Shown: positions 4,577 to 30,951, numbered from the stretch's first letter. The stretch is 64,000 bases of DNA from a phage (GCA_009015555.1 GCA_009015555.1_3613.1); one strand, 5' to 3'. Program-made: numbers and translations. The notes: generated from the letters alone by a model not told the origin.

Positions 4577-5659
4577 TTACAGAATGTTCGCCAGCGTTTT
4601 CTTCATCGCTGCCTTCTCACGAACGTTCTGGCGGTCACGGGCACAAGACCCGCATTCCTGACAACGGTACACCTTAAATTTGGACAGGAAGGTGTGGGCA
4701 GATTTGCCTTTTTCTTCCACCAAGTCGTCGGAACCGCAGCGTACACATCGCATCACAGACTGATCCGGGTGGAACAGGGCAATGTTAGGGTGCTTACGCA
4801 TAAACGGACGAACGGTCAGGTACAGTTCTTCCAATGTCGGGATATCCCCGATGTTGTACTCTTCCATTTCGTCGAATGCCGTAGGATCACCTTCCACACA
4901 GCGACGCCACAGACCGAATCCTTCGTGAGACAACTTACGGCTGTCCAGTTCGAAGTAGTTACACGCCGCTTCCAGTGCATTGGAAGGCAGAGAGAACGAC
5001 TCCTTCAGTGCCGCCAGTGTGTCGATCGTGATATATGGGCTTGGCGGTTGCATACCGTAATATGCGAAACGCTGGTTGGCCCAACCACGGTCGAAACGGG
5101 CGTTGTGTGCAATGAAGATATCACACTCGTCAAGGACTTGCCAGAGATCCTGAATCAGTTTTTTATCCGACTGATGATCCCGTTTGAACTCTTCCGGGTA
5201 GTCGGTCAGTTTACGACTGAAGATGGACGGGTTGTGCAGCCACTTCCCGGCGAACGTCAGCATGTACGGCTCTTGAATAACCTGCTTCGGCGCGATGAAT
5301 TGCTTGAAGCGACCAAACGAATAGGCGATGCTCGGAGAGGTCTCGACATCACCAAGGAACACTTTGGCACCCGGGTTATTTTCCTTCACCTTTTCGATGA
5401 AGGTTTTCTGGATCTCTGCCAGCGTTTTACCACCATTGACTTCCTGCTGCATAAAATCAGCGTACTCATCTGGTGTTGGGATACTGTCAATCAATTGTTG
5501 GACAGTTTCCAGATTACGTGCTTCCAGTTCACGCTTCAGCATGTTGCGTACAGTTGACTCTTGAGATTCCTTGCCCAGTTGACGGGCTACCTCGCGCTGG
5601 GACAACCCACCCTTCATCAGAGCCATAACCTGTTCAACAGTAAAAGTCACATTAGCCAA
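4577..5659 (-). CDS. DEDDy-type 3'-5' exonuclease with N-terminal HTH-like region and C-terminal Cys4 ribbon
   Basis: Exo I DVET, Exo II HNARFD, Exo III YNIGD motifs in order; C-terminal CVRCG...CQECG. Confidence 0.68.
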   Translation of the reverse strand: MANVTFTVEQVMALMKGGLSQREVARQLGKESQESTVRNMLKRELEARNLETVQQLIDSIPTPDEYADFMQQEVNGGKTLAEIQKTFIEKVKENNPGAKVFLGDVETSPSIAYSFGRFKQFIAPKQVIQEPYMLTFAGKWLHNPSIFSRKLTDYPEEFKRDHQSDKKLIQDLWQVLDECDIFIAHNARFDRGWANQRFAYYGMQPPSPYITIDTLAALKESFSLPSNALEAACNYFELDSRKLSHEGFGLWRRCVEGDPTAFDEMEEYNIGDIPTLEELYLTVRPFMRKHPNIALFHPDQSVMRCVRCGSDDLVEEKGKSAHTFLSKFKVYRCQECGSCARDRQNVREKAAMKKTLANIL

Positions 5660-5673
5660 AATTAATCTCCCGA

Positions 5674-5937
5674 TTACTTACAAAATTCGATAATGTCTAC
5701 CACGGCGAAGTCACGAACATCGTCTTTATCGACATCGTGCGCCTTGATGAACCACTGAGCGCCTTTATGGTACTCACTTTCCCCGTACCAGAACATTGGG
5801 GCACCCTTGATGGTTCGATAACCGCATTCACCTCTCCAGTTACGGTAGAAGAACCGAATGTTCGGGGCATCCAACCCCGCATACAGACTTCGATCGATCT
5901 TACTCATAAAGATAGTCTTCCTCCAATTTCCGGACAA
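5674..5937 (-). CDS. hypothetical protein (87 aa)
   Basis: ORF only. Confidence 0.4.
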   Translation of the reverse strand: MSGNWRKTIFMSKIDRSLYAGLDAPNIRFFYRNWRGECGYRTIKGAPMFWYGESEYHKGAQWFIKAHDVDKDDVRDFAVVDIIEFCK

Positions 5938-6469
5938 ACTCAGTGACGTAGATGGTGATCATCACGCCCTTGTCCAGGTTCTCGTCAATAACGATACCGA
6001 AGTTCAGGTAGGCGTTACGGGCGATAGTTTCCTTTGTCCACCTCTTGAGTGACTTCTTCAAGTCGGCGACAATCTCTCCGTGGAACTTATGGTGGAGATA
6101 GTCCCTTTCAAGATAGTCTGCCAGTCTACGCAGAGTTTCACTCATTGTCAACCCTGTTTTCCCTTCCATGTGCTTAGACCACAACTTCTGGACTCCGCCC
6201 TCGAAAAGATTAAGAGTTGACCCGATGACCCCACGGCATTTTCCGTCGTAATGGTCATGGTCCAAACATGGGTCCGCCATCGGCTCCCGCAGGATAGCAC
6301 AAAGACCACCCTGCTCCAAAAGGAGTTGATCCCGGTAGGCCGCAATACTCTTCGACCCAGAGACCCACTTATCCTTGCTCAAAGGTACACGAATCGGCGT
6401 TGTAGCCTTCACTTTAGCAGTGAAGCTGGGCTTCCTCGATCGCCTTCTTCTCCCTGTCCGTATTGCCAC
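5900..6469 (-). CDS. Recombination endonuclease VII-like (HNH-type) protein; start uncertain
   Basis: CAIL...DHDH...CRGV...N motif arrangement resembles T4 endonuclease VII zinc/catalytic core from memory. Confidence 0.62.
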   Translation of the reverse strand: MAIRTGRRRRSRKPSFTAKVKATTPIRVPLSKDKWVSGSKSIAAYRDQLLLEQGGLCAILREPMADPCLDHDHYDGKCRGVIGSTLNLFEGGVQKLWSKHMEGKTGLTMSETLRRLADYLERDYLHHKFHGEIVADLKKSLKRWTKETIARNAYLNFGIVIDENLDKGVMITIYVTEFVRKLEEDYLYE

Positions 6470-7058: not shown

Positions 7059-7635
7059 GGAAACACCCTCCGATCAGGATGGCGTCGGCGAGGTCGGTAG
7101 CCCCGCCATTCTTTCCAGACTTATTATAGCCCTTCAGGAATCCCGGATGCAGGATCTCGCAAACACGCATCATTTCGTTTTTGCCCATCTTCACCTTGAC
7201 CATCTTCGTCCCGGCATCGTTCATGGTTTCCTGTTCTTCACCCGGTAACCACTTACGTGCCCAAGACTTAACCGATGTCGGCGCGATGACGTGAATTTGG
7301 TCCATAGTATACCCGTCACGAAGAAGAGTCAACTGGATGCTGTAAAATAATCCAGCCAGGTCCCTTGTGGCATCGCCAACCGACCCCAGGCTCAACGATT
7401 CAAGCACGATGTGATCCACATCGAACGAATCACACACCCCGGCAATCTGCCCGGTGATGTAGGCAATCTGTTCAGCAGTGTGCTCGAAGTACATGCACCA
7501 ACCTTTGGAGTCCTTGGCCTTCTTCTCTGACCCCGTGGTGTGGAGTACCTCCTTAAAGATCGGAATCCCGTCTTCCAACACCACATAGGCACATGAAGAC
7601 AAACTTTGGTCAATCGTCAATAAGCGCATCTTCAT
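7006..7635 (-). CDS. RuvC-like Holliday junction resolvase
   Basis: N-terminal MRLLTIDQSLSS...YVVLEDG and C-terminal DLADAILIG resemble RuvC catalytic Asp motifs. Confidence 0.58.
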   Translation of the reverse strand: MKMRLLTIDQSLSSCAYVVLEDGIPIFKEVLHTTGSEKKAKDSKGWCMYFEHTAEQIAYITGQIAGVCDSFDVDHIVLESLSLGSVGDATRDLAGLFYSIQLTLLRDGYTMDQIHVIAPTSVKSWARKWLPGEEQETMNDAGTKMVKVKMGKNEMMRVCEILHPGFLKGYNKSGKNGGATDLADAILIGGCFLERNGERLGFNLKERNT

Positions 7636-7945
7636 CCTTAGCAATAAAATGGTACTCGTTCATCAAAAACACATAGTTCTTGATGACCTTTTGAACTTCG
7701 TCGTACACCGTGAACATGGCGTACTTGTCCCCCGGGTAAGGAACACCCACCGGGTATACTTCGCACAGACTACGCACCCGTGGGTCGTACCACTGGATTC
7801 GCCAAGGTTCTTCCAGCATGGTCCACGGCTCCTCGATGAGATAGAAGGTCTTTGAAGCCCCGGGCACGAATGCCGCCCGGAGTTCATCTGCCTTAATCAT
7901 CTCCTCGACGCGAACATCCAAACCGCCAGCGTCGTTTTGACTCAT
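7610..7945 (-). CDS. hypothetical protein (111 aa)
   Basis: ORF only. Confidence 0.45.
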   Translation of the reverse strand: MSQNDAGGLDVRVEEMIKADELRAAFVPGASKTFYLIEEPWTMLEEPWRIQWYDPRVRSLCEVYPVGVPYPGDKYAMFTVYDEVQKVIKNYVFLMNEYHFIAKDEDALIDD

Positions 7946-9057
7946 TACACAACCCCCACTTTACGAAGAACATGTCCCAGAGTGGTCTTATCATCCGGGG
8001 TGCGCTTCATGTACACCGCTTGGAAGATAACAGAGGCCCACTGCCCGGCGCTGAACTTGCGATCCACGCCCATGTGATCAGTGAATGCCACCCCGTCAGG
8101 GAACCACTCCTTGTACTGATTTACGATCGCTTCCCACATGGCCTTCTCATCCTGACACGGAGAGATGACTTGGAAGGCAGAGGTCTCGCCAAACTTGATC
8201 TTGTCGAAGTTTTGGTATGGCTTCACGTTATCCGATTGATCACCGAACAACATTTGGTAACCAAAGAACTTCTGGCCCCAGCCTTTTACCTTACCCTTCT
8301 CCATCCAGATCTCCCCCATCGACTCATCAATAAGCCACGGGAGCGGATGCTTCCAGTCGCGCTCTGTTGAGTCACGCATGGTATTGAAGATAAGGCCAGG
8401 GCACTGGACTTGATCTTTGTCGAATGATGCCACGATATAGTTGAACTTGCCAGTCTTTTTGTAATGCAACCAGCCCTCATACTGTTTCATGGTCAGATAA
8501 TCATCCGCCTCGATCCCGTCAATCACGATCGCGCCGTATTTCCGTTGAACATATTCACGGGTATCCGACAGCAACAACGGGCGAACAGTGTCCTCACGGT
8601 TGCCTTTGTAGATTTCCGGCGTCGGCAGCGCCAACCGGAAGTTTCCGGTCCCACCCAAGACACCGAGTCCATTTGTCGTACCCATGTGTTCAAGGATCGC
8701 GTTGATCTTAATCTTCAGCAAGTGCAGGCAGTTTTCCACAGGTTCAGGGTACTGCTTGTCCGTAATTGTGAAATCATCACGGGTCCAAGGAGTAAACTCC
8801 CGGCCCGCTGCCGCCATCTTCGCCTCCATGTTGGTGTTCTGGTCCTTCAGCCACCCGCCGACTACTGTTTTCTGTCGGCCCCAAAACTCCGTCTTGTTCT
8901 TGAACTCCATCTGACGACCGGATTTGTTGTGGGTTGCGATAATGGTACGCTTTTCCGCGCCCGCCGCCGCAACATAACACGTCTGATCCAAATCAAGAAC
9001 AATAGTAACATCATCCGTAACGATATCCTTCAGGTTTTCTACAACGGGATAACCCAT
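7945..9057 (-). CDS. Flap endonuclease / 5'-3' exonuclease (RNase H-like, FEN family)
   Basis: GIEADDYL, FDKDQVQCPG and MLFGDQSDN motifs typical of phage 5'-3' exonucleases. Confidence 0.72.
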   Translation of the reverse strand: MGYPVVENLKDIVTDDVTIVLDLDQTCYVAAAGAEKRTIIATHNKSGRQMEFKNKTEFWGRQKTVVGGWLKDQNTNMEAKMAAAGREFTPWTRDDFTITDKQYPEPVENCLHLLKIKINAILEHMGTTNGLGVLGGTGNFRLALPTPEIYKGNREDTVRPLLLSDTREYVQRKYGAIVIDGIEADDYLTMKQYEGWLHYKKTGKFNYIVASFDKDQVQCPGLIFNTMRDSTERDWKHPLPWLIDESMGEIWMEKGKVKGWGQKFFGYQMLFGDQSDNVKPYQNFDKIKFGETSAFQVISPCQDEKAMWEAIVNQYKEWFPDGVAFTDHMGVDRKFSAGQWASVIFQAVYMKRTPDDKTTLGHVLRKVGVV

Positions 9058-9069
9058 TACTCACTCCTC

Positions 9070-9576
9070 TTAAAACGCATCACCAAAGTCCTCTTCTTCC
9101 TTGACGGGGCGCTTGAACTTAAAGTCCGGCCCCATGTACTCACTCAGGTAGTCGATATTAAGCGACCACTCCTGCTGGCTGCGCTGCCGCCATGTGGCAA
9201 ACTCACTTTTCAGATAAGCAATGGCCTGATCACGAGTGATCCCATTAACCTTCATGAATTGCTTGATCGCCCTTTCGAGTTTCCCGTTCTTCTCGGCGAG
9301 GCCCGGATGGTGGAACTCATGGCACGGCGGACACAGGCTCATGAGGCCGACCAGTTTAACCTCTCCATTTTCGAATGTCCAGCTTTCATGACACTCAACC
9401 GGATGTTTTCTTCCGTTTCCACCCTGCCCACCACAGATCTGGCAGGTGTAGTTGTGCTCGGCATAGCACTTCCGGCGCACCTTATCCCACCCGGTCTGGG
9501 TGAGGTAAGAACGGAGGTTGTTGTCCCACGCCGTTTGTGGGATCAGGCAGATTTTATGCTTAATCTTTGAAGTCAT
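9070..9576 (-). CDS. Cys/His-rich putative zinc-binding protein
   Basis: CQICGG...HPVECHE...CPPCHEFHH cluster; start taken at MTSKIKHK. Confidence 0.42.
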   Translation of the reverse strand: MTSKIKHKICLIPQTAWDNNLRSYLTQTGWDKVRRKCYAEHNYTCQICGGQGGNGRKHPVECHESWTFENGEVKLVGLMSLCPPCHEFHHPGLAEKNGKLERAIKQFMKVNGITRDQAIAYLKSEFATWRQRSQQEWSLNIDYLSEYMGPDFKFKRPVKEEEDFGDAF

Positions 9577-10111
9577 TACGCACCCTCTCATACCCGCCGC
9601 AGCGGTCAATCAGGGCGTCCGTCGCCCGGTCCCACGCCTTGCCCAAGAGGTTCATCCCCAACCAGTTGGCCTCGTCGTCAATCATCGGGTGGTCTTGGCT
9701 CAGGCCGACACCCCAGATACGATCCCGGTCAGAAGCCTCAACAAAACTCCGGCCCGCAAGTCGGTGCTGGATCGCCTCGCAGCGGAGGCCGAGGTCAAAC
9801 ACCAGACGGCAGTAACAGACATTCTCGACGATCTGCTCTCGGGACTTCTCCCACAGTTCGTTGTTGAACCCCTTTACCTTACGACCAAGCATCTTGGCTT
9901 CCTGCGGGTGGAATACCTCTGTGATCTGCCGGGCGATATTGTGATCGGCAAACAGCATGGCCTTTTCGTACATCATCATGTGCTCCCCGGTGTAGAACTT
10001 AACACCTTCCTGCTCATGTCGCGGCAGAGCGAAAGCCCTGTCGTTTCGGTAATGATTACTGAACATGTCCTTCCACGAATAGAAGAACACGTGCTTGTCG
10101 GTCACCCTCAT
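9560..10111 (-). CDS. NADAR (YbiA-like, DUF1768) domain protein
   Basis: GEHMMMYEKAMLF...IWGVGL pattern characteristic of NADAR/YbiA family from memory. Confidence 0.65.
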   Translation of the reverse strand: MRVTDKHVFFYSWKDMFSNHYRNDRAFALPRHEQEGVKFYTGEHMMMYEKAMLFADHNIARQITEVFHPQEAKMLGRKVKGFNNELWEKSREQIVENVCYCRLVFDLGLRCEAIQHRLAGRSFVEASDRDRIWGVGLSQDHPMIDDEANWLGMNLLGKAWDRATDALIDRCGGYERVRNDFKD

Positions 10112-13542: not shown

Positions 13543-13905
13543 TTACTTGTCTGTCTCCAGGATCTTACGCTCAGTAGCCAGATCACGGTTCTCCGCCAGG
13601 TCGTTTTCGAACTTACTCGGGTAACGAGCCTTCAGCTTGCGAATCACACGGTCCTGCTCTGCATCGAAGTCGGTGTTCAGTGCATCCATCGCCAGTGCCA
13701 GATACCACAGCAGGTCACCCATTTCCTCTTTCAGGTTGGTGGTGTCCAGAGGCTTGCCGTAGAACAGGGACTTCTTCAGGGCATCCTGGAACTCTGCCGC
13801 CTCGGTCACCAGACCCATTGAAGCGTGAATCAGGCGCGGGCCAACCGCGTCCAGATAAAAGTTGTGGGACTCGGTACGGATAGCATCTTTAATAAACTGC
13901 GACAT
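13543..13905 (-). CDS. MazG-like nucleotide pyrophosphohydrolase
   Basis: EMGDLLWYLALAMDAL motif typical of MazG/all-alpha NTP-PPase family; start taken at MSQFIKD. Confidence 0.6.
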   Translation of the reverse strand: MSQFIKDAIRTESHNFYLDAVGPRLIHASMGLVTEAAEFQDALKKSLFYGKPLDTTNLKEEMGDLLWYLALAMDALNTDFDAEQDRVIRKLKARYPSKFENDLAENRDLATERKILETDK

Positions 13906-13959
13906 CAACTTCTCCTTTTCTGTTTCAGTGGGGCCATTATACATGACCCCGTTACACTG

Positions 13960-14400
13960 TCAACGACTTTTGTAAATCTTTTCTGCTTCTTCCCGGCGAC
14001 GTTCGTCACGGGCCTTCCTTTCGATGGCACACGCTTCCCGGTAGGCTTTCCGCCGGGCACCGCAGATACCTTCGACCAGACGCAGAACGCGATCCTGCTC
14101 CCAACGGTTCATCCAGTCGAGATCCCCGGAGACAACAGGGGAGCCGTGGAAGTTGTCACGGTAAAGGTACGTCTTCACCTTCCGTTCGTGGTCGAGGATC
14201 ACATAGTCCACAAAGTGGCTACAGCGGTCTCGGTCCGCTTGCGATGGGTTGTCGTACACTTCCAGCTTTTTGGCAGCGATCAATTCGAGAATCCGATTGA
14301 CCGGGGGCCGGGTCATGCGCCTTGGTGTCACGTACTTATCCCATGCCCATACGAGGACCAGAAGAATAAACAAACTTGTGCAGACCCAGAATCCCGTCAT
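13960..14400 (-). CDS. membrane-anchored hypothetical protein
   Basis: N-terminal TM helix WVCTSLFILLVLVWAW. Confidence 0.45.
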   Translation of the reverse strand: MTGFWVCTSLFILLVLVWAWDKYVTPRRMTRPPVNRILELIAAKKLEVYDNPSQADRDRCSHFVDYVILDHERKVKTYLYRDNFHGSPVVSGDLDWMNRWEQDRVLRLVEGICGARRKAYREACAIERKARDERRREEAEKIYKSR

Positions 14401-15764
14401 TCCAGATCCTCCGCAATAGCCCGCAGCAGATCCAGCAGGGAGTCAGATGCCTCGATCACCTCTTCCAGGCTGTTAGCCTTGGTCTTGTCCATACGGATCT
14501 CGACGAACTTGTAGTTCAGACGAGGCAGGAACAGAGACTGAAGCTCTTTGGTTTCCGACTTCGTGATGTCGTTGGCCTTGATCGTGATGATCTGCCCGAT
14601 GAAGAAGTCCGCTGGCTTCTTACGAAGCGCGTCCGTCAAGCCGGAGCCGACGCCAACTTCCAGCAAGCCGTCACGAGTACGACAGATCAGTGCGCCGACG
14701 AGACTAGGATCTTTCTTGTGCGGCGTTGTAGCCACGACTTCCAGATCAACATCGAACTCGTTCTTCAACTTGACGCCTTTCTTCGTCTTGTTGTCGCCCC
14801 ACGGCATCTTCGCCTCTTTGAGGACGGTGCCCTCTTTCTTCTGGAGGCGCATTTCGATGAAGTGGTCGATCGCTTCCTTCAGGCTGTTGATCTTACGGCC
14901 CGTAACCATACGGAAGTTGTAACGGCGATCGACTTCCTGCACCAGCAGATCCGCCTCGATACGACGATCAGCGTAGTCGGTCTTCGACTTACGTGCGATG
15001 TACTCTTCCATCGTCACGATGTCCCAGATCACCAGGCGCACCAGATCACGATCGATGTCTGCCGGGTCTTGGTTCAGGTAGCCGTTGCCCTCAGCACGTT
15101 CCATCACACCATGCAGGCCATCATCGTCGATAACCAGACCTTCGCCATGTGCCACAAAGGCCCCACGGTTTTCTGCCGCCTGCATCAGGCGCTGCTCGAT
15201 CTCTTCCGGAGCACGGAAGTTCAGTTCCTTCCCGGAGCGGGAGCGGTAGATCACCTGCTCAGGCCACACCATGATGTCCGCATACAGGCCATCCATTTTC
15301 TCGTCGGAGAAAGCGCCCTTGTAGTTGAACTTACGCAGCAGATCCTCTTTGAACAGGGTGTAGCTCTGGTACGGAGGCTCCGTGATCAGGTCTTTCCACA
15401 CCTTATTGGTCAGAGTGGTCTGGATGCCGCACTCCAGATCTCGGTTGATGATCTTCAGAAGTGTGCCCGGCTCCTCGCAGGTCTGTACCAGTTGAGTCAT
15501 GTACGACTTCGCATCATCACCCGTGTAAACTCGCCCTGCGATGTTCTTCACCAACAGATCCACGCTTTCAGACAGCGGGGTAAGACCAGTCGTGAAGAAT
15601 GGAACCCGCAGTCCTCGGACGAAAAAGTTCAGTTCTTTGGAATATGCAACAGCGAAGGCTTGTTTCAGGCCATCGTTATCGGCATTCGCCCGCAGGATCG
15701 CTTCCTTCTCCTTGAGGGATCGGGTTGCAGACAACTCTGCGAGAATACTCGTTACGTTTGACAT
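14397..15764 (-). CDS. ATP-dependent DNA ligase-like nucleotidyltransferase
   Basis: KMDG (KxDG motif I) about 157 aa from N-terminus, similar spacing to T4 DNA ligase from memory; RNA ligase not excluded. Confidence 0.55.
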   Translation of the reverse strand: MSNVTSILAELSATRSLKEKEAILRANADNDGLKQAFAVAYSKELNFFVRGLRVPFFTTGLTPLSESVDLLVKNIAGRVYTGDDAKSYMTQLVQTCEEPGTLLKIINRDLECGIQTTLTNKVWKDLITEPPYQSYTLFKEDLLRKFNYKGAFSDEKMDGLYADIMVWPEQVIYRSRSGKELNFRAPEEIEQRLMQAAENRGAFVAHGEGLVIDDDGLHGVMERAEGNGYLNQDPADIDRDLVRLVIWDIVTMEEYIARKSKTDYADRRIEADLLVQEVDRRYNFRMVTGRKINSLKEAIDHFIEMRLQKKEGTVLKEAKMPWGDNKTKKGVKLKNEFDVDLEVVATTPHKKDPSLVGALICRTRDGLLEVGVGSGLTDALRKKPADFFIGQIITIKANDITKSETKELQSLFLPRLNYKFVEIRMDKTKANSLEEVIEASDSLLDLLRAIAEDLE

Positions 15765-15850
15765 TTGGTCTCCTCATTAACGCCACAATTGTAAGCCCGG
15801 CGAGCATTGCCCCACCGAGAATTAAGAATACCGCAAGAAATCGGATCGCG

Positions 15851-19269: not shown

Positions 19270-20160
19270 ATGATTCGTGCATATTTAGGCGGAAGTCAGT
19301 TGGACATCGAGTTCAGCACATTTGCCGGGGGCGAGAGAAACGTCCTCATCAAGGGTTTCCAATGGCCCAGTCCGTTCAATGCGGATCTGAAAGAGAAGAT
19401 GCCAGAAGGTAAAGACCTTGTTGTCTACGCCCATGTTGACAGTTCAGATGCCATCATGGACCTGCTGCTGTTTACCGACGCATTCAACCGCATGGGTCGA
19501 GGCACAGGCAACCAGGTGAAGAAGGTCTGTTATGTGCCATACATCCCGTATGCCCGTCAAGACCGAGTGATGGTTCCTGGAGAACCGCTGTCGTCGGCAG
19601 TGTTTGGAACACTTATCAACCTGTGTGGATTTGACCGTATCATTGTTGATGACCCGCACTCAGATGTGTCTCCGTCACACATCAAGAACGTTGCCATTTT
19701 CGAACAATATGAACTGGCCTTGGATATTCTTGGCCCGGGCTTCTTCGACGATGCCGTTATCGTAGCTCCGGACGCCGGGGCAATCAAGAAGGTCACGAAG
19801 TTGGCTCAGAAGGTCAACCACCGTGAAATCGGGGTTGGGACCAAGCATCGTGACCTTATGACCAATAACATCACTGACACGACTTATGCCGGGCCGGATG
19901 TTAATGGTAAGCGTGTCATCATGGTTGATGACATTTGCGACGGAGGTCGTACATTTATCGAGCTTGGTAAGGTTCTCCGTGCCAATGGTGCGAAAGAGGT
20001 TGTTCTGTACACCACGCACGGGATTTATTCCTACGGCGCGGATGTGTTTAAGGACGTTATTGATGAGGTTTACTCCGCCTATCCGTGGATGAAGAACCTG
20101 GAAGGCCGAAACGAAAATAATATTTTCAAATCTGTTGACAAGATGGTTGAGTTCAAGTAA
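19270..20160 (+). CDS. PRPP synthetase (Prs)-family phosphoribosyl-pyrophosphokinase; candidate ADP-ribose pyrophosphate synthetase (Adps) of a NARP1-type pathway
   Basis: Type I PRTase/Prs motif VIMVDDICDGGRTF and Prs-like N-terminal half (PYARQDR); strong RBS GAGGAGAGAGAT-ATG. Confidence 0.75.
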   Translation: MIRAYLGGSQLDIEFSTFAGGERNVLIKGFQWPSPFNADLKEKMPEGKDLVVYAHVDSSDAIMDLLLFTDAFNRMGRGTGNQVKKVCYVPYIPYARQDRVMVPGEPLSSAVFGTLINLCGFDRIIVDDPHSDVSPSHIKNVAIFEQYELALDILGPGFFDDAVIVAPDAGAIKKVTKLAQKVNHREIGVGTKHRDLMTNNITDTTYAGPDVNGKRVIMVDDICDGGRTFIELGKVLRANGAKEVVLYTTHGIYSYGADVFKDVIDEVYSAYPWMKNLEGRNENNIFKSVDKMVEFK

Positions 20161-20211: not shown

Positions 20212-22002
20212 ATGTTACATAACGACCTGCCTATCCTGTTTGCTGACTGGTACAAACCGAGCCATATTTCCATGTACAGCAAACAGTCTGAGATCGTACA
20301 AGACAACATGACCCCACGCTCAAGCAAACACTTTCAGCACTTTTCTGACAGTGACCAGCGCGTCATGTCTGCTGGCCTGCAAGGCTTTATTAAGTGGTTC
20401 CTGATTGAACACTTCAACCGTGAGTTCTTCGGTCGTCCGAAGGAAGAAGTTATCGGGGAGTTCAAAGAGATCTGTGACCTGGCGATCGGCCCAGACATGG
20501 TTGAAACGTGGGGCTTCGAAAAGCTGCATGACCTGGGCTATCTGCCTGTTGAAATCCGCGCCCTGCCGGAAGGTACTCTTTCTCCGGTACAAGTGCCTCT
20601 GTTCACAATTCAGAACACGCACCCGGACTTCTACTGGCTTCCTAACTACCTGGAGTCAGTGATCTCCTCTGAAAACTGGAAAACCGTAACTACGGCAACC
20701 ATTTTCTGGCAGTATCGTAAGCTGGCTGAACTGTGGGCGCAGAAAACCTGCGACAACAACCTGCACGTCCCGTTCCAGATTCATTGCTTCGCTTATCGCG
20801 GCCAGGCTGGCACTCACGATGCGGCCCAGTCTGAACTGGGACAACTGATGAACTCTCAGGGCACCGACACCATCCCGGCGATCCTGTATGCAAACCGTTA
20901 TTACGGTATGAAAGGCAAGTTCGTATCCGGCTCCATCCCGGCATCCGAGCACAGCGTTGCAACAACGAACATCGGGTTCATCATCGGACGCCTCCGTTCT
21001 GAGCATCCGGAAATGTCGCTGGATGACCTGCGTTTCCACGCAGAAGTCGAGTTCCTGCGCCGATACATCACTGAAATCTTCCCGAAAGGTTTCGTGTCTT
21101 ATGTCGGCGACAGTTATGACTGGTTCCGCCTGATCACTCAGGGTGTTCGTATCCTGAAAGACGAAATCATGGCCCGTGATGGTCGTGTGGTATTCCGCCC
21201 GGATTCCGGCGTACCGGAAGACATCATCTGCGGCACACTGGACTGGCGTAAGATTGAAGACCTCGACACGGCAGGTACTCTGGAACGCGCTGCCAATTGG
21301 GCACTGGAAAGTGCCGAAGATGAAGTTCGTGAGAACACCCCGCACGGTGAATGCGGTGATGAATCCGTTGAACGTTACTTCCTGTTCGATGGCGATCTGT
21401 ACCTGATGAAGGGTGAGATTGACTGGAACCGTCACGACAAAACGTATTACTACATCGACGGTCGCCGTGTTCTGTCTTACGAAAAGGCAGAACTCACTGA
21501 TGAGCAGAAAGGTTCTGTTGAACTGCTGTACGATGTGTTCGGTGGCGACCTGAACTCCAAAGGCTATCGTACTCTGGACACCCACGTCGGCCTGATTTAC
21601 GGTGACTCCATCACCGTTGCTCGCGCCAAAGAGATCTTCGAGCGCCTGGAAGCAAAAGGCTTTGCATCGAACAACGTTGTGTTCGGTGTCGGTTCCTTCA
21701 CCACCCAGTTCAACACTCGTGATTCTCTGGGTCAGGCAGTCAAGGCGACAGGCGCGGTTATTGACGGTCAGCAGATCATGGTCGTCAAAGAGCCTAAGAC
21801 CGACCTCGGCAAGAAGTCTGCTCAGGGCTTCCTGAAGGTTGTTCGTGGTGAAGACGGTGAACTGAAGCTGGTTGATAACCTCCAACTGGAGCAAGTCAAC
21901 GATACCGACAATGAACTGCGTGTGGTTTTCCGTGACGGCGTTCTGCTGGTTGACGAAACGCTGACTGAAATCCGTGAGCGTGTCACAGCAAACCTGAAAT
22001 AA
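20212..22002 (+). CDS. Nicotinamide phosphoribosyltransferase (NAMPT/NadV) family protein; candidate nicotinamide ADPR transferase (Namat)
   Basis: 596-aa NAMPT-family translation immediately downstream of the Prs-like gene; RBS GAGGAG; no NMN adenylyltransferase seen in window. Confidence 0.8.
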   Translation: MLHNDLPILFADWYKPSHISMYSKQSEIVQDNMTPRSSKHFQHFSDSDQRVMSAGLQGFIKWFLIEHFNREFFGRPKEEVIGEFKEICDLAIGPDMVETWGFEKLHDLGYLPVEIRALPEGTLSPVQVPLFTIQNTHPDFYWLPNYLESVISSENWKTVTTATIFWQYRKLAELWAQKTCDNNLHVPFQIHCFAYRGQAGTHDAAQSELGQLMNSQGTDTIPAILYANRYYGMKGKFVSGSIPASEHSVATTNIGFIIGRLRSEHPEMSLDDLRFHAEVEFLRRYITEIFPKGFVSYVGDSYDWFRLITQGVRILKDEIMARDGRVVFRPDSGVPEDIICGTLDWRKIEDLDTAGTLERAANWALESAEDEVRENTPHGECGDESVERYFLFDGDLYLMKGEIDWNRHDKTYYYIDGRRVLSYEKAELTDEQKGSVELLYDVFGGDLNSKGYRTLDTHVGLIYGDSITVARAKEIFERLEAKGFASNNVVFGVGSFTTQFNTRDSLGQAVKATGAVIDGQQIMVVKEPKTDLGKKSAQGFLKVVRGEDGELKLVDNLQLEQVNDTDNELRVVFRDGVLLVDETLTEIRERVTANLK

Positions 22003-23477: not shown

Positions 23478-23553
23478 GCTGGATTAGCTCAGTAGGTAGA
23501 GCGCCTCACTTGTAATGAGGATGTCGCGGGTTCGATTCCTGCATCCAGCACCA
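23478..23553 (+). tRNA. tRNA-Thr (anticodon TGT)
   Basis: Cloverleaf read by eye: acceptor gctggat/atccagc, anticodon loop cttgtaa, T-loop ttcgatt, CCA encoded. Confidence 0.8.
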
Positions 23554-23559
23554 GATCAT

Positions 23560-23636
23560 GCAACGTTGCCGGAGTCTGGTAACGGCTCTCGCTGCAAACG
23601 AGATGAGCACTGGTTCGAATCCAGTACGTTGCTCCA
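23560..23636 (+). tRNA. tRNA-Cys (anticodon GCA)
   Basis: Acceptor gcaacgt/acgttgc, anticodon stem tctcg/cgaga, loop ctgcaaa, T-loop ttcgaat, CCA. Confidence 0.75.
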
Positions 23637-23637
23637 A

Positions 23638-23714
23638 GCGCCTTTGGTCCAATTGGTAGAGGCACTACATTCAAAATGTAGGGGTTCCCAGTTCGAATCT
23701 GGGAAGGCGCACCA
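23638..23714 (+). tRNA. tRNA with CAA anticodon (Leu by anticodon) but short variable arm
   Basis: Acceptor gcgcctt/aaggcgc, anticodon stem ctaca/tgtag, loop ttcaaaa, T-arm cccag-ttcgaat-ctggg, CCA; only 5-nt variable region. Confidence 0.6.
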
Positions 23715-23730
23715 AAATTTATGTAACCTA

Positions 23731-23759
23731 TTGACATAGTGTAATTATACTGCTAATAT
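23731..23759 (+). promoter_or_regulatory. Sigma70-type promoter for the small gene embedded in the tRNA array
   Basis: TTGACA 23731-23736, 17-nt spacer, TAATAT 23754-23759, then RBS and ATG at 23786. Confidence 0.6.
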
Positions 23760-23785
23760 GGATACACTAATTCAATGGGGGCATT

Positions 23786-24160
23786 ATGAGCAAGGCTGCG
23801 ATTGTAACTCGTAAGCGTGGTCGCCCAAGCAAAGAAGAGAGCACAGCAATCGCCCTTGAAAAGGCAATGCTTGATCTCCGAGGCGAATTGGCCCGTCTGA
23901 CGCCGAAGGCCATTCATACTCTCGAAAACCTGCTCACAACAGGCACAGAGAAAGTGAAGGAAACCACGGCGAAGTATATCCTTGAGCAGGCGAAAGAGGT
24001 TAACAACCTCTATACTGAAGAGGATAACGAAGACGACGCAGCAGGCGGCACAACATCTGCCTCTTCTGAAACTCACGCTGGTTCTTCTGACGAGATGAAA
24101 AATGCCATCCCGTTGACAACCCAGATTCGTGAGTATAAAGCAGTAGGCGAAGATGATTAA
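23786..24160 (+). CDS. small protein with AT-hook-like RKRGRPSK motif (124 aa)
   Basis: Own promoter, RBS and downstream hairpin; basic N-terminus, acidic Ser/Thr-rich C-terminus. Confidence 0.5.
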   Translation: MSKAAIVTRKRGRPSKEESTAIALEKAMLDLRGELARLTPKAIHTLENLLTTGTEKVKETTAKYILEQAKEVNNLYTEEDNEDDAAGGTTSASSETHAGSSDEMKNAIPLTTQIREYKAVGEDD

Positions 24161-24162
24161 CT

Positions 24163-24190
24163 GGAAGGCTCCCGAAGGAGCCTTTATTAG
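24163..24190 (+). terminator. Terminator-like hairpin
   Basis: aaggctcccgaaggagcctt hairpin followed by tattag (weak T tract). Confidence 0.4.
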
Positions 24191-24325
24191 AAGTTCTCTT
24201 TTGACGGGCACTTGTTAACGACCCGCAGAATGACGACGGTGTACAACGGCGTTTGATGGCGAGGAAGGTCTATAGGGATCAGCGCAGATCCTTGGATGTC
24301 AGGTGAGCCGTACAAAAGAGAATTT

Positions 24326-24413
24326 GGGGAGTTATTTCCGTAGAGGTAGCGGTGCAGACTGTAAATCTGTTGTCATTGCGACTCGGGTGGTTCGACTCCA
24401 TCACTCCCCACCA
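24326..24413 (+). tRNA. tRNA-Tyr (anticodon GTA), long variable arm
   Basis: Acceptor ggggagt/actcccc, anticodon loop ctgtaaa, T-loop ttcgact, CCA. Confidence 0.75.
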
Positions 24414-24419
24414 AATTAT

Positions 24420-24514
24420 AGTAGGATGGCTGAGTGGCTTAAAGCAGCATCTTGGAAAGGTGTCGGATCAGGTAACCCCTGGTCCCGGGAGTTCAAATCT
24501 CCCTCCTACTGCCA
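24420..24514 (+). tRNA. tRNA-Ser (anticodon GGA), long variable arm
   Basis: Acceptor agtagga/tcctact, anticodon loop cttggaa, T-loop ttcaaat, CCA. Confidence 0.7.
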
Positions 24515-24518
24515 GACC

Positions 24519-24595
24519 GGATCGTTAGCTCAATTGGTTAGAGCAAGGGACTTTTAATCCCGAGGTTCGGGGTTCGAGTCCCTGACGGTCCACCA
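24519..24595 (+). tRNA. tRNA-Lys (anticodon TTT)
   Basis: Acceptor ggatcgt/acggtcc, anticodon loop cttttaa, T-loop ttcgagt, CCA. Confidence 0.75.
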
Positions 24596-24760
24596 GAAAG
24601 GAAGAGGGTCCAAGCTGGTAATGCGAGAGGCGAGTCCTCAGACCAAAGCCCAGATGGAGGCCACCCTAAAGTCGTCCAACCGAAGGTCCCTGATTGAGTA
24701 ATACTTCCCCGCTTGTCGGGTACAGTTCTCAGTCACACCGGAAGGGGCGCACCCTATAAT

Positions 24761-24836
24761 TGACGGTGAGCATATAAGGACATGCGGGGGCCTGTTAAGT
24801 CCAGGATAGCTGGTTCGAATCCAGTACCGTCAGCCA
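24761..24836 (+). tRNA. tRNA-Asn (anticodon GTT)
   Basis: Acceptor tgacggt/accgtca, D-stem gcat/atgc, anticodon loop ctgttaa, T-loop ttcgaat, CCA. Confidence 0.7.
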
Positions 24837-24945
24837 ATTTGGTTCCGACAAGGTGACGGCGCACCCCGGAGCGACGCTGAAAGATGCAGGCCGACGAACA
24901 CATACGTGTACTTAATCAATAGTCATTGCGATGGCTATTCGTTAA

Positions 24946-25023
24946 GTCCTGGTAGACAAACTGGATAAAGTCACCACCCTTTCAAGGTGGGGTTTGAGGG
25001 TTCGATCCCCTCTCAGGACGCCA
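24946..25023 (+). tRNA. tRNA-Glu (anticodon TTC)
   Basis: Acceptor gtcctgg/tcaggac, anticodon stem ccacc/ggtgg, loop ctttcaa, T-loop ttcgatc, CCA. Confidence 0.75.
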
Positions 25024-25117
25024 ATCTTTTAGGTCGGTAGATTAATGAGCAAAGGCCGCTCGCTGGATTCCAACCCCAGTTCAAGGCGTTCGATTCGTCA
25101 CCTTCCTGCCAAATTCA

Positions 25118-25193
25118 GGTCCTATGGTATTAGCGGTAAACATACTCGCCTGTCACGCGAGAGTCACGGGTTCGAATCCCGTTAGGACCGCCA
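25118..25193 (+). tRNA. tRNA-Asp (anticodon GTC)
   Basis: Acceptor ggtccta/taggacc, anticodon stem ctcgc/gcgag, loop ctgtcac, T-loop ttcgaat, CCA. Confidence 0.75.
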
Positions 25194-25200
25194 CTTCAAA

Positions 25201-25275
25201 TGGGGATTAGCTCAGGGGTAGAGCGCACAACTGATAATTGTGAGGTCGGTGGTTCGAAACCACCATCCCCAACCA
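25201..25275 (+). tRNA. tRNA-Ile (anticodon GAT)
   Basis: Acceptor tggggat/atcccca, D-arm gctc-aggggta-gagc, anticodon loop ctgataa, T-loop ttcgaaa, CCA. Confidence 0.75.
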
Positions 25276-25345
25276 AACAGCCCCTCCCGGGATTGGACCG
25301 GGTTAACGGCAATCGCACACTGAGGCGTCTTCCGGGGGAACAATA

Positions 25346-25422
<77 letters not shown>

Positions 25423-25428
25423 AATTAT

Positions 25429-25503
25429 TGCGAGGTAGTTCAGCGGTAGAACAGGGGTTTCATACGCCTCATGTCGGCAGTTCGATTCTGCCCTTCGCAA
25501 CCA
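25429..25503 (+). tRNA. tRNA-Met (anticodon CAT; initiator, elongator or Ile-lysidine type not distinguished)
   Basis: Acceptor tgcgagg/cttcgca, anticodon loop ttcatac, T-loop ttcgatt, CCA. Confidence 0.7.
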
Positions 25504-25509
25504 AATCAT

Positions 25510-25587
25510 GCTCCAGTAGCCCAATTGGTAGAGGCACTTGATTTAGGATCATGTCAGCGATGAGTTCGAATCTCTCCTGGAGTACCA
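25510..25587 (+). tRNA. tRNA with TAG anticodon (Leu by anticodon), short variable arm, weak T-stem
   Basis: Acceptor gctccag/ctggagt, anticodon stem cttga/tcatg, loop tttagga, T-loop ttcgaat with only ~3 bp T-stem, CCA. Confidence 0.5.
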
Positions 25588-25593
25588 CATAAA

Positions 25594-25667
25594 GCGGGCA
25601 TGGTATAGTGGTTGTGCCTTAGCCTTCCAAGCTAATGAGTCCGGTTCGATCCCGGATGTCCGCTCCA
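25594..25667 (+). tRNA. tRNA-Gly (anticodon TCC)
   Basis: Acceptor gcgggca/tgtccgc, anticodon stem ttagc/gctaa, loop cttccaa, T-loop ttcgatc, CCA. Confidence 0.75.
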
Positions 25668-25740
25668 ATTCACGGTGAGTCACTGCCGTTAAGTGTGAAG
25701 TTAAAAATGCCCGTGGTGATCGGGTTATCTCACCCAGTGT

Positions 25741-25816
25741 AGGGGATTAGTTTAATTGGTAAAACATCGGGTTTTGATCCCGACATCGCGAGGTTCGAAT
25801 CCTCCATCCCCCGCCA
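25741..25816 (+). tRNA. tRNA-Gln (anticodon TTG)
   Basis: Acceptor aggggat/atccccc (A1-C72 mismatch), anticodon stem tcggg/cccga, loop ttttgat, T-loop ttcgaat, CCA. Confidence 0.7.
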
Positions 25817-25898
25817 CATTAATGCTCATTAGCTCTTGTCAGTGGAACTCGAACCCTTAGAGCAGGCGACACAGACGTGTGTTTTAGTGAGCATCAAT

Positions 25899-25974
25899 GT
25901 GGCCTTAATTCAGCAGGTAGAATCCCCGGTTGTGAACCGGGCAGTCGTGGGTTCAAGTCCCACAGGTCACCCCA
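25899..25974 (+). tRNA. tRNA-His (anticodon GTG)
   Basis: Acceptor gtggcct/aggtcac, anticodon stem cccgg/ccggg, loop ttgtgaa, T-loop ttcaagt, CCA. Confidence 0.75.
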
Positions 25975-25978
25975 ATCT

Positions 25979-26071
25979 GGAAGATAGGGCGTAGTGGTAC
26001 GCACCCGGATTTGAACCCCGGCCCGCTGTGGCGACCCCACGGTGATAGTTCGACTCTATTATCTTCCGCCA
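25979..26071 (+). tRNA. tRNA-Ser (anticodon TGA), long variable arm
   Basis: Acceptor ggaagat/atcttcc, anticodon loop tttgaac, long variable arm, T-loop ttcgact, CCA. Confidence 0.65.
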
Positions 26072-26092
26072 CCCCTGATCATAAGGCAAACT

Positions 26093-26785
26093 ATGTTAGA
26101 AATGTTAACAGTGGGTAAATACACCCCTAGTCCTATAATTTCTAGCCCTATGGATGCTTATTTTGAGGGCGAGAGGAATAATAAATACGGCACTGTTGAG
26201 TGGGTTGTTCCTCAAGGCGTCACCTCAATCTGCTGTGTAGTGATAGGCGCAGGATCTTCTGGCAGAAGCGGCGGTCTTTCTTGGAGAAACAACATTCCAG
26301 TTACACCTGGTGAAAAACTTAAAATGCAGGTTAACTCCACAGCCAGCGCCCTCTTGAGAGAGACAACTATCCTTTGTGCTGCCCAGTGTGGCGGCAACGG
26401 AGGAAAAACATATAACTCTGTGAACGACGGTGGAGGCAATGCTGGACAATCACCACATGGTAGAGGTGGTGCTGGCGGCTACACCGGGAATGGTGGTGAT
26501 GGGCATACGTTCACAGGTGGTCCAGGACCAGGGTCCCCAGGTTCAGGTGGCGGCGGCGGCGGAGGCGCAGTTGTGTATCTGAACGGATCATTGACACCAA
26601 CTGTCTGCGGCGGAGTCGGCATGTATGGACAGGGGTCGAATGGTGGCGCTGATAACAGCGCCGGATATCCAGGCTCCGGCGGTTCTGGAACAAGATACGG
26701 AAGAGCAGTCGATGGTTATGGTGTTGTCAGGGTTGTGTGGGGAAATTATTCATTCCCAACAAATGCCCCGAGACCGAAATCCTGA
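26093..26785 (+). CDS. glycine-rich hypothetical protein (~230 aa) embedded in tRNA array
   Basis: Start taken at MLEMLTVGKY (track ORF start at 26042 lies inside tRNA-Ser); Gly-rich GGxGG runs and C-terminal GYGVVRVVWG. Confidence 0.5.
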   Translation: MLEMLTVGKYTPSPIISSPMDAYFEGERNNKYGTVEWVVPQGVTSICCVVIGAGSSGRSGGLSWRNNIPVTPGEKLKMQVNSTASALLRETTILCAAQCGGNGGKTYNSVNDGGGNAGQSPHGRGGAGGYTGNGGDGHTFTGGPGPGSPGSGGGGGGGAVVYLNGSLTPTVCGGVGMYGQGSNGGADNSAGYPGSGGSGTRYGRAVDGYGVVRVVWGNYSFPTNAPRPKS

Positions 26786-26856
26786 TAGGGATGGTCCCTA
26801 CGAGGATCGTCTTTTGCTCAGTGGTACTCAGCATTTACTTAGTATTCAAACAATAT

Positions 26857-26943
26857 AGAAGAGTGGCGAAATAGGTAGCCGCACCGGACTGCTAATCCGG
26901 GGTCCTTCGGGGCCTGAGAGTTCAAGTCTCTCCTCTTCTGCCA
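26857..26943 (+). tRNA. tRNA-Ser (anticodon GCT), long variable arm
   Basis: Acceptor agaagag/ctcttct, anticodon stem ccgga/tccgg, loop ctgctaa, T-loop ttcaagt, CCA. Confidence 0.75.
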
Positions 26944-26948
26944 AGCAT

Positions 26949-27024
26949 GGAACTGTAGCTCAGTTGGTAGAGCGGTTGCCTGAAGAGCAGCGCGTCAGCG
27001 GTTCAAATCCGTTCAGTTCCACCA
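26949..27024 (+). tRNA. tRNA-Phe (anticodon GAA)
   Basis: Acceptor ggaactg/cagttcc, D-arm gctc-agttggtaga-gagc, anticodon loop ctgaaga, T-loop ttcaaat, CCA. Confidence 0.8.
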
Positions 27025-29427: not shown

Positions 29428-30951
29428 GTGTCAAGAAAACGTAATCGTAACCGCTCCGTTAAAGTGGCTAAGGCCACCAGCGAGCAACTTAACGTATCCC
29501 GTATGCGTATGAGTGAGCAAGGGACCTTTGCTCTGGCTAAGGTTCAGGTTGACTCCGAACGTATGAAGGCCGAAGAGATTCGCTGGCCCAACCTGATTGG
29601 TACAGTCGAGTCAATGAAGCAGGACGCCACCGTTGCGACGGGCCTTGACATGCTGTACACTTTCGTGGAGAAGGCGTTCAAGGATTTCAAGGTAATCCCT
29701 GGCGAATCTGAGGAGTCCAAAAAGGCTGCTAAGTTTGTTGAGTATTGCCTGAAGAACATGGAAGGTCAAACCCTTCGTCAGTTCGCCCGTGACGCCGCAA
29801 CATTCAACGAGTATGGCCTGTCAGTTGTGGAGAAAGTCTACACTCAGGTTACTGTTGGGGAATACATCGGCAAGTACAAGGTAAAGAACCTTGCTTTCCG
29901 ACCGCAGGCGTCCTTGAGCCGGACAAACCCGATTGTTTACAATGAGGACGGCTCTGCCATCATCGGTATTAAACAATCCCTATCTGCGTTCCAGAACTAC
30001 ACAGCCAGTGAGATTGGTGTTGGTGGCGTATCCACCCGCATGAGTGATGTCATTATCCCAATCAATCGTGTCATGCTGATGAACACGGGAGGCTCTTCAT
30101 CTCAGGCTCTCGGTGTCTCTCCTCTGGTAGGGTGCTACCGAGCGTGGCGTGAAAAGATTCTGATTGAGAACCTTGAGGTTGTTGGCGCAACCAAGGACAT
30201 GGGTGGTGTGATCGAATTGAAGATCCCTTCCCAGATCCTGAACAAAGCTGCAATGGACCAGTCTTCTCCTGAAGCAGAAATGGTCCGTGGCCTGATGTCT
30301 GACGCTGCAAATGCCCACTCCGGTGAGCAGTCATTCTTCATGCTGCCATCTGATACAAAGGATAACGCCCCTCAGTATTCAATGACCCTCAAGGGCATCG
30401 ACGGGATGGGTAAGCAGTACAGCACCGCACAGTTGATCAGTGACCGTAAGAAGTCAATCCTTGATCGTCTGGGCGCTGGCTTCATCAACGTGGGTAACGA
30501 CAAAGGCGGTTCTTACAACCTGTCTGAGTCCAAGCAGACTATCCACACCCAGTTTGTTCAACGTGTAAACGAGATCATTCTGGAAGCTCTGAACGAAAAC
30601 CTGCTGCCACAATTGCTGGCTCTGAACGATATGCGCCTCCCGGAGACGGAGATGCCATACGTCAAGGCTGGGGAAATCGTGGACGTGGACATGGAAGGTT
30701 TCTCCAAGGCGATTCAGCGTATTGGTGCCGTTGGATACCTGCCGAAAACTCCGAAGGTTATCAACCGTGTACTGGAAGTTCTGGGCATTGATGAGAAGAT
30801 TGAGGAAGACATTTCTCAGGAAGAACTCATGAAGCTGTTGGGTGAAGATACGAGCCGCGCCGGAGACGGCATGACGAAAGGATCTTCTGGTAACGGTACT
30901 GGCAAAATCTCTTCCACAAGAGATAATTCAGCGGCTAATTTGGATAATTAA
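29428..30951 (+). CDS. Portal protein (putative; GTG start)
   Basis: ~500-aa ORF immediately after large terminase, size and position typical of portal. Confidence 0.65.
   Translation: MSRKRNRNRSVKVAKATSEQLNVSRMRMSEQGTFALAKVQVDSERMKAEEIRWPNLIGTVESMKQDATVATGLDMLYTFVEKAFKDFKVIPGESEESKKAAKFVEYCLKNMEGQTLRQFARDAATFNEYGLSVVEKVYTQVTVGEYIGKYKVKNLAFRPQASLSRTNPIVYNEDGSAIIGIKQSLSAFQNYTASEIGVGGVSTRMSDVIIPINRVMLMNTGGSSSQALGVSPLVGCYRAWREKILIENLEVVGATKDMGGVIELKIPSQILNKAAMDQSSPEAEMVRGLMSDAANAHSGEQSFFMLPSDTKDNAPQYSMTLKGIDGMGKQYSTAQLISDRKKSILDRLGAGFINVGNDKGGSYNLSESKQTIHTQFVQRVNEIILEALNENLLPQLLALNDMRLPETEMPYVKAGEIVDVDMEGFSKAIQRIGAVGYLPKTPKVINRVLEVLGIDEKIEEDISQEELMKLLGEDTSRAGDGMTKGSSGNGTGKISSTRDNSAANLDN

Follow-up and report, generated by a model that had tools for sequence, protein, structure and literature searches.

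Does a phage genome rich in tRNA genes that also encodes a lysine nucleotidyltransferase carry an RNA ligase for the repair of broken tRNAs, or simply a DNA ligase? The question is raised by a minus-strand locus in a 64,000 nt stretch of phage DNA (the window), where a first-pass annotation had noticed a ligase-like gene at 14397-15764 and considered both readings. An open reading frame fills exactly these coordinates (14397..15764, minus strand; ATG start, 455 amino acids plus stop), and the large tRNA set that had suggested RNA repair is indeed present, in the form of 18 tRNA genes between 23478 and 27024 on the plus strand. The first of the two readings is strongly supported, namely that of a T4-like ATP-dependent DNA ligase, while the tRNA-repair RNA ligase finds no support. 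We are highly confident that the gene encodes an ordinary T4-type phage ATP-dependent DNA ligase, which by its architecture is an ortholog of T4 gp30.

The window derives from a Certrevirus (Vequintavirinae) of the Cronobacter phage CR3 group, and its positions 1-25000 align to CR3 120185-146370. At the DNA level the ligase gene is 98.8% identical to CR3 gp247 ('putative DNA ligase'), and its protein is 100% identical to P7_276 of Pectobacterium phage vB_PcaM_P7_Pc, which is annotated as 'DNA ligase'. The ortholog in phage phiTE (phiTE_187, 88% amino acid identity) is also named DNA ligase. The assignment is already known in the sense that an identical protein carries the DNA ligase name in GenBank. 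Gene order, too, is that of Certrevirus and Vequintavirinae relatives, with a membrane protein and MazG downstream of the ligase.

The gene is clearly real, as indicated by a dN/dS of 0.15 against the phiTE ortholog, and it is under purifying selection. A Shine-Dalgarno sequence, GAGGAG (15770..15775, minus strand), lies 5 nt upstream of the ATG (15764-15762), and a ribosome-binding site is annotated at the same place in the P7_Pc record. At the other end, the ligase stop codon and the start of the next gene overlap as ATGA (14397-14400), the usual sign of translational coupling in an operon. An overlapping plus-strand ORF of 461 aa (14376..15761) was considered and rejected as a by-product of the ligase frame, since plus-strand ORFs in the same region of phiTE do not exceed 152 aa.

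The motif that had drawn attention to this protein is KxDG, which the first-pass annotation placed some 157 aa into the protein, a position like that in T4 DNA ligase. This holds: K.DG occurs once in the 455-aa protein, as KMDG, and the lysine concerned is residue 156, compared with residue 159 in T4 DNA ligase (KADG), 99 in T4 Rnl1 and 35 in T4 Rnl2. Taken alone, however, KMDG is weak evidence, because K.DG is present in 16% of shuffles of the protein. The matches that involve the whole protein (PHROG 114 and 6DT1, see below), together with the dN/dS, are far beyond chance.

The comparison with family models that had been proposed to separate DNA from RNA ligases gave a consistent picture. 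Two Pfam models of DNA ligases exceed their gathering cut-offs, DNA_ligase_A_M (PF01068; 34.3 bits against 26.2, residues 140-334) and DNA_ligase_OB_2 (PF14743; 32.7 bits against 28, residues 355-404), and for PHROG 114 ('ATP-dependent DNA ligase') the match extends over residues 1-454, at 9.7e-110. By contrast, the Pfam model RNA_ligase (PF09414) reaches only 13.4 bits where its cut-off demands 27, and no match to the Rnl1 model appears at E up to 10. NCBIfam gave sub-threshold matches only, every one of them to a DNA ligase model. Similarly, a DNA-ligase Pfam domain (PF01068 and/or PF14743) is present in all 120 homologs listed. At the level of sequence, the protein is thus clearly assigned to the ATP-dependent DNA ligase family, an outcome that the first-pass annotation had itself named as speaking against RNA repair.

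Comparison with solved structures and with individual T4 enzymes leads to the same family. The best solved structure by sequence is the T4 DNA ligase-DNA complex 6DT1 (6.3e-37, in two stretches covering residues 4-437), and the isolated N-terminal DNA-binding domain of T4 ligase, 5WFY, is matched at 1.8e-14 over residues 5-126. In the profile search against the PDB, 51 DNA ligases come first, followed by mRNA capping enzymes from E 0.09, and the sole RNA ligase appears at E 0.99. Four T4 enzymes (gp30, Rnl1, Rnl2 and Pnk) were translated from the T4 record for comparison. Against gp30, blastp gave 2.4e-40 over residues 4-437, which includes all three domains, while blastp and phmmer against Rnl1, Rnl2 and Pnk returned nothing (the best blastp value for Rnl1 being E 5.9). 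When the family alignment was compared by hhalign, the probability was 1.15% for T4 Rnl2 and 0.13% for T4 Rnl1; in the alignment with Rnl2, motifs I, IV and V of the adenylation core fall into register, as expected of a shared superfamily rather than a shared family. The structure was predicted with AlphaFold from an alignment of 25 sequences (mean pLDDT 90.5, pTM 0.77). In a Foldseek search of the PDB with this model, 6DT1 ranks at the top (E 3.3e-38, TM 0.74), with Pmar-Lig and a ligase from a Rhizobium phage next in line; every one of the 50 matches listed is an ATP-dependent DNA ligase. Four independent lines, i.e. family models, sequence matches to solved structures, the T4 comparison and predicted structure, therefore agree on a DNA ligase.

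The domains can be delimited as follows. An N-terminal alpha-helical DNA-binding domain occupies approximately residues 1-128 (15381..15764, minus strand), aligns to 5WFY, and comprises seven helices between residues 4 and 122 in the AlphaFold model; the corresponding domain of T4 ligase spans residues 1-129 (PMC6212786). The nucleotidyltransferase (adenylation) domain, at approximately residues 130-334 (14763..15377, minus strand), is recognised by Pfam DNA_ligase_A_M and contains motifs I, III, IIIa, IV and V. It is followed by an OB-fold domain (approximately residues 337-430; 14475..14756, minus strand), which is matched by DNA_ligase_OB_2, aligns to OB residues 370-487 of T4 ligase, and is modelled with beta strands from 337 to 423. 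Motif VI (RxDK) lies in this domain as R424-M-D426-K427 (14484..14495, minus strand) and is needed for ATP-dependent lysine adenylation in ATP-dependent DNA ligases (PMC7470946; for its role see also PMC6212786). Finally, residues 433-453 (14406..14468, minus strand) form a C-terminal helix in the AlphaFold model, a clade-specific extension.

Residues of known function in T4 DNA ligase (PMC6212786) were mapped onto the candidate through an alignment with 23 other homologs (alignment A1), and all of them are invariant in this alignment. The adenylated lysine of T4, K159, corresponds to K156 in motif I (KMDGLY; codon at 15297..15299, minus strand), which is therefore the predicted adenylated residue and is invariant in 121 of 121 homologs; D161 and G162 of the same motif correspond to D158 and G159. 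R182, which contacts the 5'-phosphate of the nick, is R176 in the candidate, E217 of motif III (ribose 2'-OH) is E208, and W282 of motif IIIa, which stacks on the adenine, is W247. Likewise, motif IV (EGxxxK; T4 E344 and K349) is represented by E311 and K316, motif V (KxK; T4 K365 and K367) by K332 and K334, the OB-domain contact to the nick (T4 L458) by L413, and motif VI (T4 R465, D467 and K468) by R424, D426 and K427. What is established for this ligase is the family to which it belongs, its domain architecture, the conserved state of its catalytic residues and the action of purifying selection.

The surroundings of the gene fit a role in DNA metabolism. On the same (minus) strand the window contains genes for a ThyX-type thymidylate synthase (1718-2764), a DNA polymerase exonuclease subunit (4577-5659), endonuclease VII (5900-6469), an exonuclease (7945-9057; assigned at PHROG level only), an HNH endonuclease (9070-9609) and MazG pyrophosphatase (13543-13944). 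The exonuclease was also considered as a flap endonuclease, a reading that we dropped as Pfam gave no match. CR3 likewise encodes a DNA polymerase, a primase/helicase and a helicase, and its annotation names only one ligase. Given these replication and recombination neighbours and the single annotated ligase of CR3, the gene is best read as the nick-sealing component of the machinery with which the phage replicates and recombines its DNA.

From homology, we infer the catalytic activity, substrate range and in vivo role of the enzyme. In the first step K156 would attack ATP, motif VI of the OB domain would orient the departing pyrophosphate, and ligase-AMP would result. The nicked duplex would be encircled by the helical DNA-binding, adenylation and OB domains, AMP would be passed to the 5'-phosphate of the nick in duplex DNA, and attack by the 3'-OH would seal it. 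In the phage, such an activity would probably join Okazaki fragments and seal nicks arising from recombination and repair, presumably in concert with the polymerase, primase-helicase, exonucleases and endonuclease VII that the phage itself encodes.

The candidate departs from T4 ligase in three respects. Motif I reads KMDGLY, so that the Arg of the consensus KxDGxR is missing and Y161 stands at the position of T4 R164, while H206 occupies the position of T4 D215. The Arg at position +5 of motif I is the consensus in ATP-dependent DNA ligases and capping enzymes, yet we regard it as typical rather than defining, since NAD-dependent DNA ligases are not known to carry it. Tyr or Phe is found at the R164 position in 116 of 121 homologs, always combined with a residue other than Asp (His, Met, Gln, Asn or Leu) at the D215 position, and the remaining five have Arg in motif I, each with its Asp partner; the two positions thus co-vary without exception across the 121 aligned sequences. 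Among solved structures, the two closest, those of T4 ligase and Pmar-Lig, have the canonical Arg/Asp pair. In T4 ligase, R164 contacts the 3'-OH of AMP and is positioned by D215 (PMC6212786). Because the swap is common to 116 of the 121 homologs, the pattern argues for a clade-wide active-site variant, and not for a lesion or a loss of function in the present gene. A second difference concerns the loop with which T4 ligase binds the gp45 sliding clamp (T4 residues 222-247), for which the candidate and each of the 23 other homologs in alignment A1 have only gaps. This loop is a T4-specific and not a family-defining feature, and coupling to the replisome, if any, must therefore differ from that in T4. 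Thirdly, the sequence pattern of the C-terminal helix is conserved in homologs and missing from T4 ligase and from the Arg-type homologs. None of the three, i.e. Tyr/His swap, missing clamp loop or extra helix, points to RNA substrates.

How, then, do other interpretations of the gene fare? The replacement of the AMP-ribose-contacting Arg of T4 by Y161, and of its Asp partner by H206 (PMC6212786), could be taken to indicate a catalytically impaired ligase homolog that serves in structure or regulation instead. Among 121 homologs down to 28% identity, however, every other catalytic residue is invariant, the low dN/dS is at odds with such impairment, CR3 has this gene as its only annotated ligase, and Tyr or Phe is the state of most members of a large phage clade, unlike decay, so that we find an impaired enzyme barely credible. 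A different reading is that of an Rnl1- or Rnl2-like RNA ligase, which would rejoin tRNAs, of the phage or of the host, after cleavage by the host's anticodon nucleases. It draws on the KxDG motif of a lysine nucleotidyltransferase, on the 18 tRNA genes of the phage, on the in-register alignment with Rnl2, which reflects superfamily-level relatedness only, and on two enzymes that relatives encode elsewhere in the genome, in CR3 an RlaP-family nucleotidyltransferase (gp195; PF10127, 1.2e-17) and a CCA-adding enzyme with HD domain (gp201), both outside the window. Against it stand the sub-threshold RNA_ligase score and the unmatched Rnl1 model, the negligible hhalign probabilities and empty blastp and phmmer comparisons, the ranking in the PDB search, and the architecture of the protein, in which a T4-ligase DNA-binding domain at the N-terminus and an OB fold with motif VI at the C-terminus are found in regions to which T4 Rnl1 and Rnl2 show no similarity. 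Both T4 RNA ligases have C-terminal domains of other kinds and are not known to possess an OB fold. What sets the candidate's architecture apart from theirs is its OB domain, along with its helical DNA-binding domain of the T4 type. Moreover, tRNA repair in T4 needs polynucleotide kinase as well as Rnl1 (T4 record note for rnlA), and this partner was found neither in the window nor in CR3: tblastn of T4 Rnl1, Rnl2 and Pnk against the window returned nothing credible (best E for Pnk 0.07, in an unrelated ORF), the CR3 annotation names no RNA ligase, RtcB or polynucleotide kinase, and Pfam and/or PHROG scans of 22 distinct larger or suggestively named CR3 proteins detected none of the three. Two faint tblastn matches, to Rnl2 (E 0.088, 29782-29949) and Rnl1 (E 2.1, 30520-30788), were considered as traces of a hidden RNA ligase and rejected as chance; both fall into one 507-aa ORF (29428-30951), which directly follows the terminase large subunit and whose CR3 counterpart is annotated as portal protein. 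An RNA ligase at this locus is accordingly extremely improbable, and nothing in the sequence, the predicted structure or the genome supports it.

A further possibility is that the protein is a DNA ligase with a second physiological task on nicks in RNA or RNA-DNA hybrids, such as finishing a tRNA repair that RlaP and CCA-adding enzymes have begun. Since T4 DNA ligase is reported to join RNA-splinted DNA in vitro, though poorly (PMC3919565), sequence cannot sustain a strict claim of DNA-only activity. RlaP enzymes, which also occur in T4, add 1-2 nucleotides to damaged RNA 3' ends, and their genes usually adjoin RNA ligases (PMC12776372); CR3-type phages possess RlaP and the CCA-adding enzyme with no detectable RNA ligase (by annotation and among the proteins scanned). 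The clade has, in addition, replaced the ribose-contacting Arg of motif I, and there is a slight chance that the altered active site might accept a broader range of substrates, including RNA-containing nicks, and so supply the sealing step of tRNA repair. However, the ligase lies about 27 kb from RlaP in CR3, among DNA-metabolism genes, the hosts' own RtcB, which is common in enterobacteria, could serve instead (E. coli has an RtcBA operon; PMC12776372), the documented phage answers to tRNA cleavage include replacement tRNAs, a counter-defence known from phage T5 and from retron-evading phages (PMC11464382, PMC11555353), and positive evidence for RNA substrates is nil. We therefore regard such a second task as very unlikely. 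The phages of this group may well be able to mend tRNA ends, but not by way of the present ligase gene.

With the T4-type DNA ligase as the preferred reading, the finding matters little beyond correct annotation, and its useful outcome is the negative one: tRNA repair by a ligase in the manner of T4 should not be ascribed to this tRNA-rich Certrevirus genome. The documented answer to tRNA-cleaving defences is the supply of replacement tRNAs, to which 3'-end repair by RlaP and CCA-adding enzymes may possibly be added. For ligase enzymology, the coupled exchange of Arg/Asp for Tyr/His offers a small, testable point.

Among known systems, T4 Rnl1 (gp63) and Rnl2 share with the candidate the superfamily of covalent lysine nucleotidyltransferases, and the Rnl2 core can be aligned at the three motifs mentioned, but there is no significant similarity to either enzyme. 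The core of the candidate is flanked by a DNA-binding domain and by an OB fold that bears motif VI, whereas the two RNA ligases have C-terminal domains specific to their own kind. The T4 pathway that combines these RNA ligases with Pnk differs further in its kinase/phosphatase partner, which was not detected in the window, in the CR3 annotation or in the 22 CR3 proteins. Pmar-Lig of Prochlorococcus marinus (6RAR/6RAS/6RAU) is the second-best structural match (E about 1e-28), and it shares with T4 ligase a pared-down DNA-binding domain of seven helices (PMC7470946); its identity to the candidate is only about 18%, and it keeps KLDGVR in motif I together with the Asp partner. T4 DNA ligase gp30 (6DT1, 5WFY) comes closest among these, being the best match by sequence (6.3e-37) as well as by structure (TM 0.74): the order of helical DNA-binding domain, adenylation domain and OB fold is the same, the nucleotidyl-accepting lysine is at K156 against K159, and motifs I, III, IIIa, IV, V and VI are all present. 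Identity to gp30 nevertheless amounts to only about 27-31%, and the candidate differs from it by lacking the gp45 clamp-binding loop, by having Tyr/His for R164/D215, and by its additional C-terminal helix (residues 433-453). From CR3 gp247, phiTE_187 and P7_276, all of PHROG 114, nothing of substance separates the candidate, which is the same gene in a closely related phage genome.

The ligase gene is translationally coupled, through an ATGA overlap, to the gene for a predicted membrane protein of 146 aa (window 13960-14400, minus strand), which belongs to PHROG 12581, has no match in Pfam and is kept at the same position in Cronobacter phage CR3, Pectobacterium phage vB_PcaM_P7_Pc and phage phiTE. 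To find such a protein coupled to a DNA ligase is unusual. The entire ligase gene is also overlain in antisense by an open frame of 461 aa (14376-15761, plus strand). In the corresponding region of phiTE (85% nucleotide identity), no ORF on the plus strand exceeds 152 aa. The frame thus lacks conservation, and most probably it merely reflects the reading frame of the ligase on the other strand.

A few kilobases away from the ligase gene, that for a PRPP synthetase (19270-20160) adjoins that for a 596-aa protein of the nicotinamide/nicotinate phosphoribosyltransferase family (20212-22002), both on the plus strand. Together they are an NAD-salvage pair, in a phage with an ATP-using ligase, and could have a bearing on host defences that deplete NAD.

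ARAGORN placed a cluster of 18 tRNAs at 23478-27024 (plus strand), which includes three tRNA-Ser (GGA, TGA and GCT), while no tRNA-Tyr was found in the window. The CR3 record likewise lists 18 tRNAs, but with tRNA-Tyr present and no more than two tRNA-Ser; these almost identical phages differ either in their set of tRNAs or in how the tRNAs were called. CR3, the closest relative, encodes both an RlaP-family nucleotidyltransferase (gp195, at 7072-8193 of the CR3 locus L005; PF10127, a family associated with RNA repair) and a CCA-adding enzyme that carries an HD domain (gp201, L005:10122-11438), both outside the window. Since neither a phage RNA ligase nor RtcB nor a polynucleotide kinase was detected in the CR3 annotation or in Pfam and/or PHROG scans of 22 CR3 proteins, this module for the repair of RNA ends seems to be missing the ligase that normally accompanies it.

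The clade of the window ligase possesses a conserved amphipathic C-terminal helix after motif VI (residues 433-453; 14406-14468), which might be a protein-interaction element. By contrast, the gp45 clamp-binding loop of T4 ligase, whose equivalent site lies between residues 212 and 215, is absent from this clade. Motif I (residues 156-161; 15282-15299) reads KMDGLY, as opposed to KxDGxR. Among 121 homologs compared, the motif I Arg position and its Asp-partner position covary perfectly: the partner is Asp in all five Arg-bearing ligases and non-Asp in 116 of 116 with Tyr or Phe. The canonical Arg/Asp pair is present in the structures of both T4 ligase, where R164 and D215 hold the AMP ribose, and the Prochlorococcus marinus ligase Pmar-Lig, whereas the window ligase has Tyr and His (H206, codon 15147-15149).
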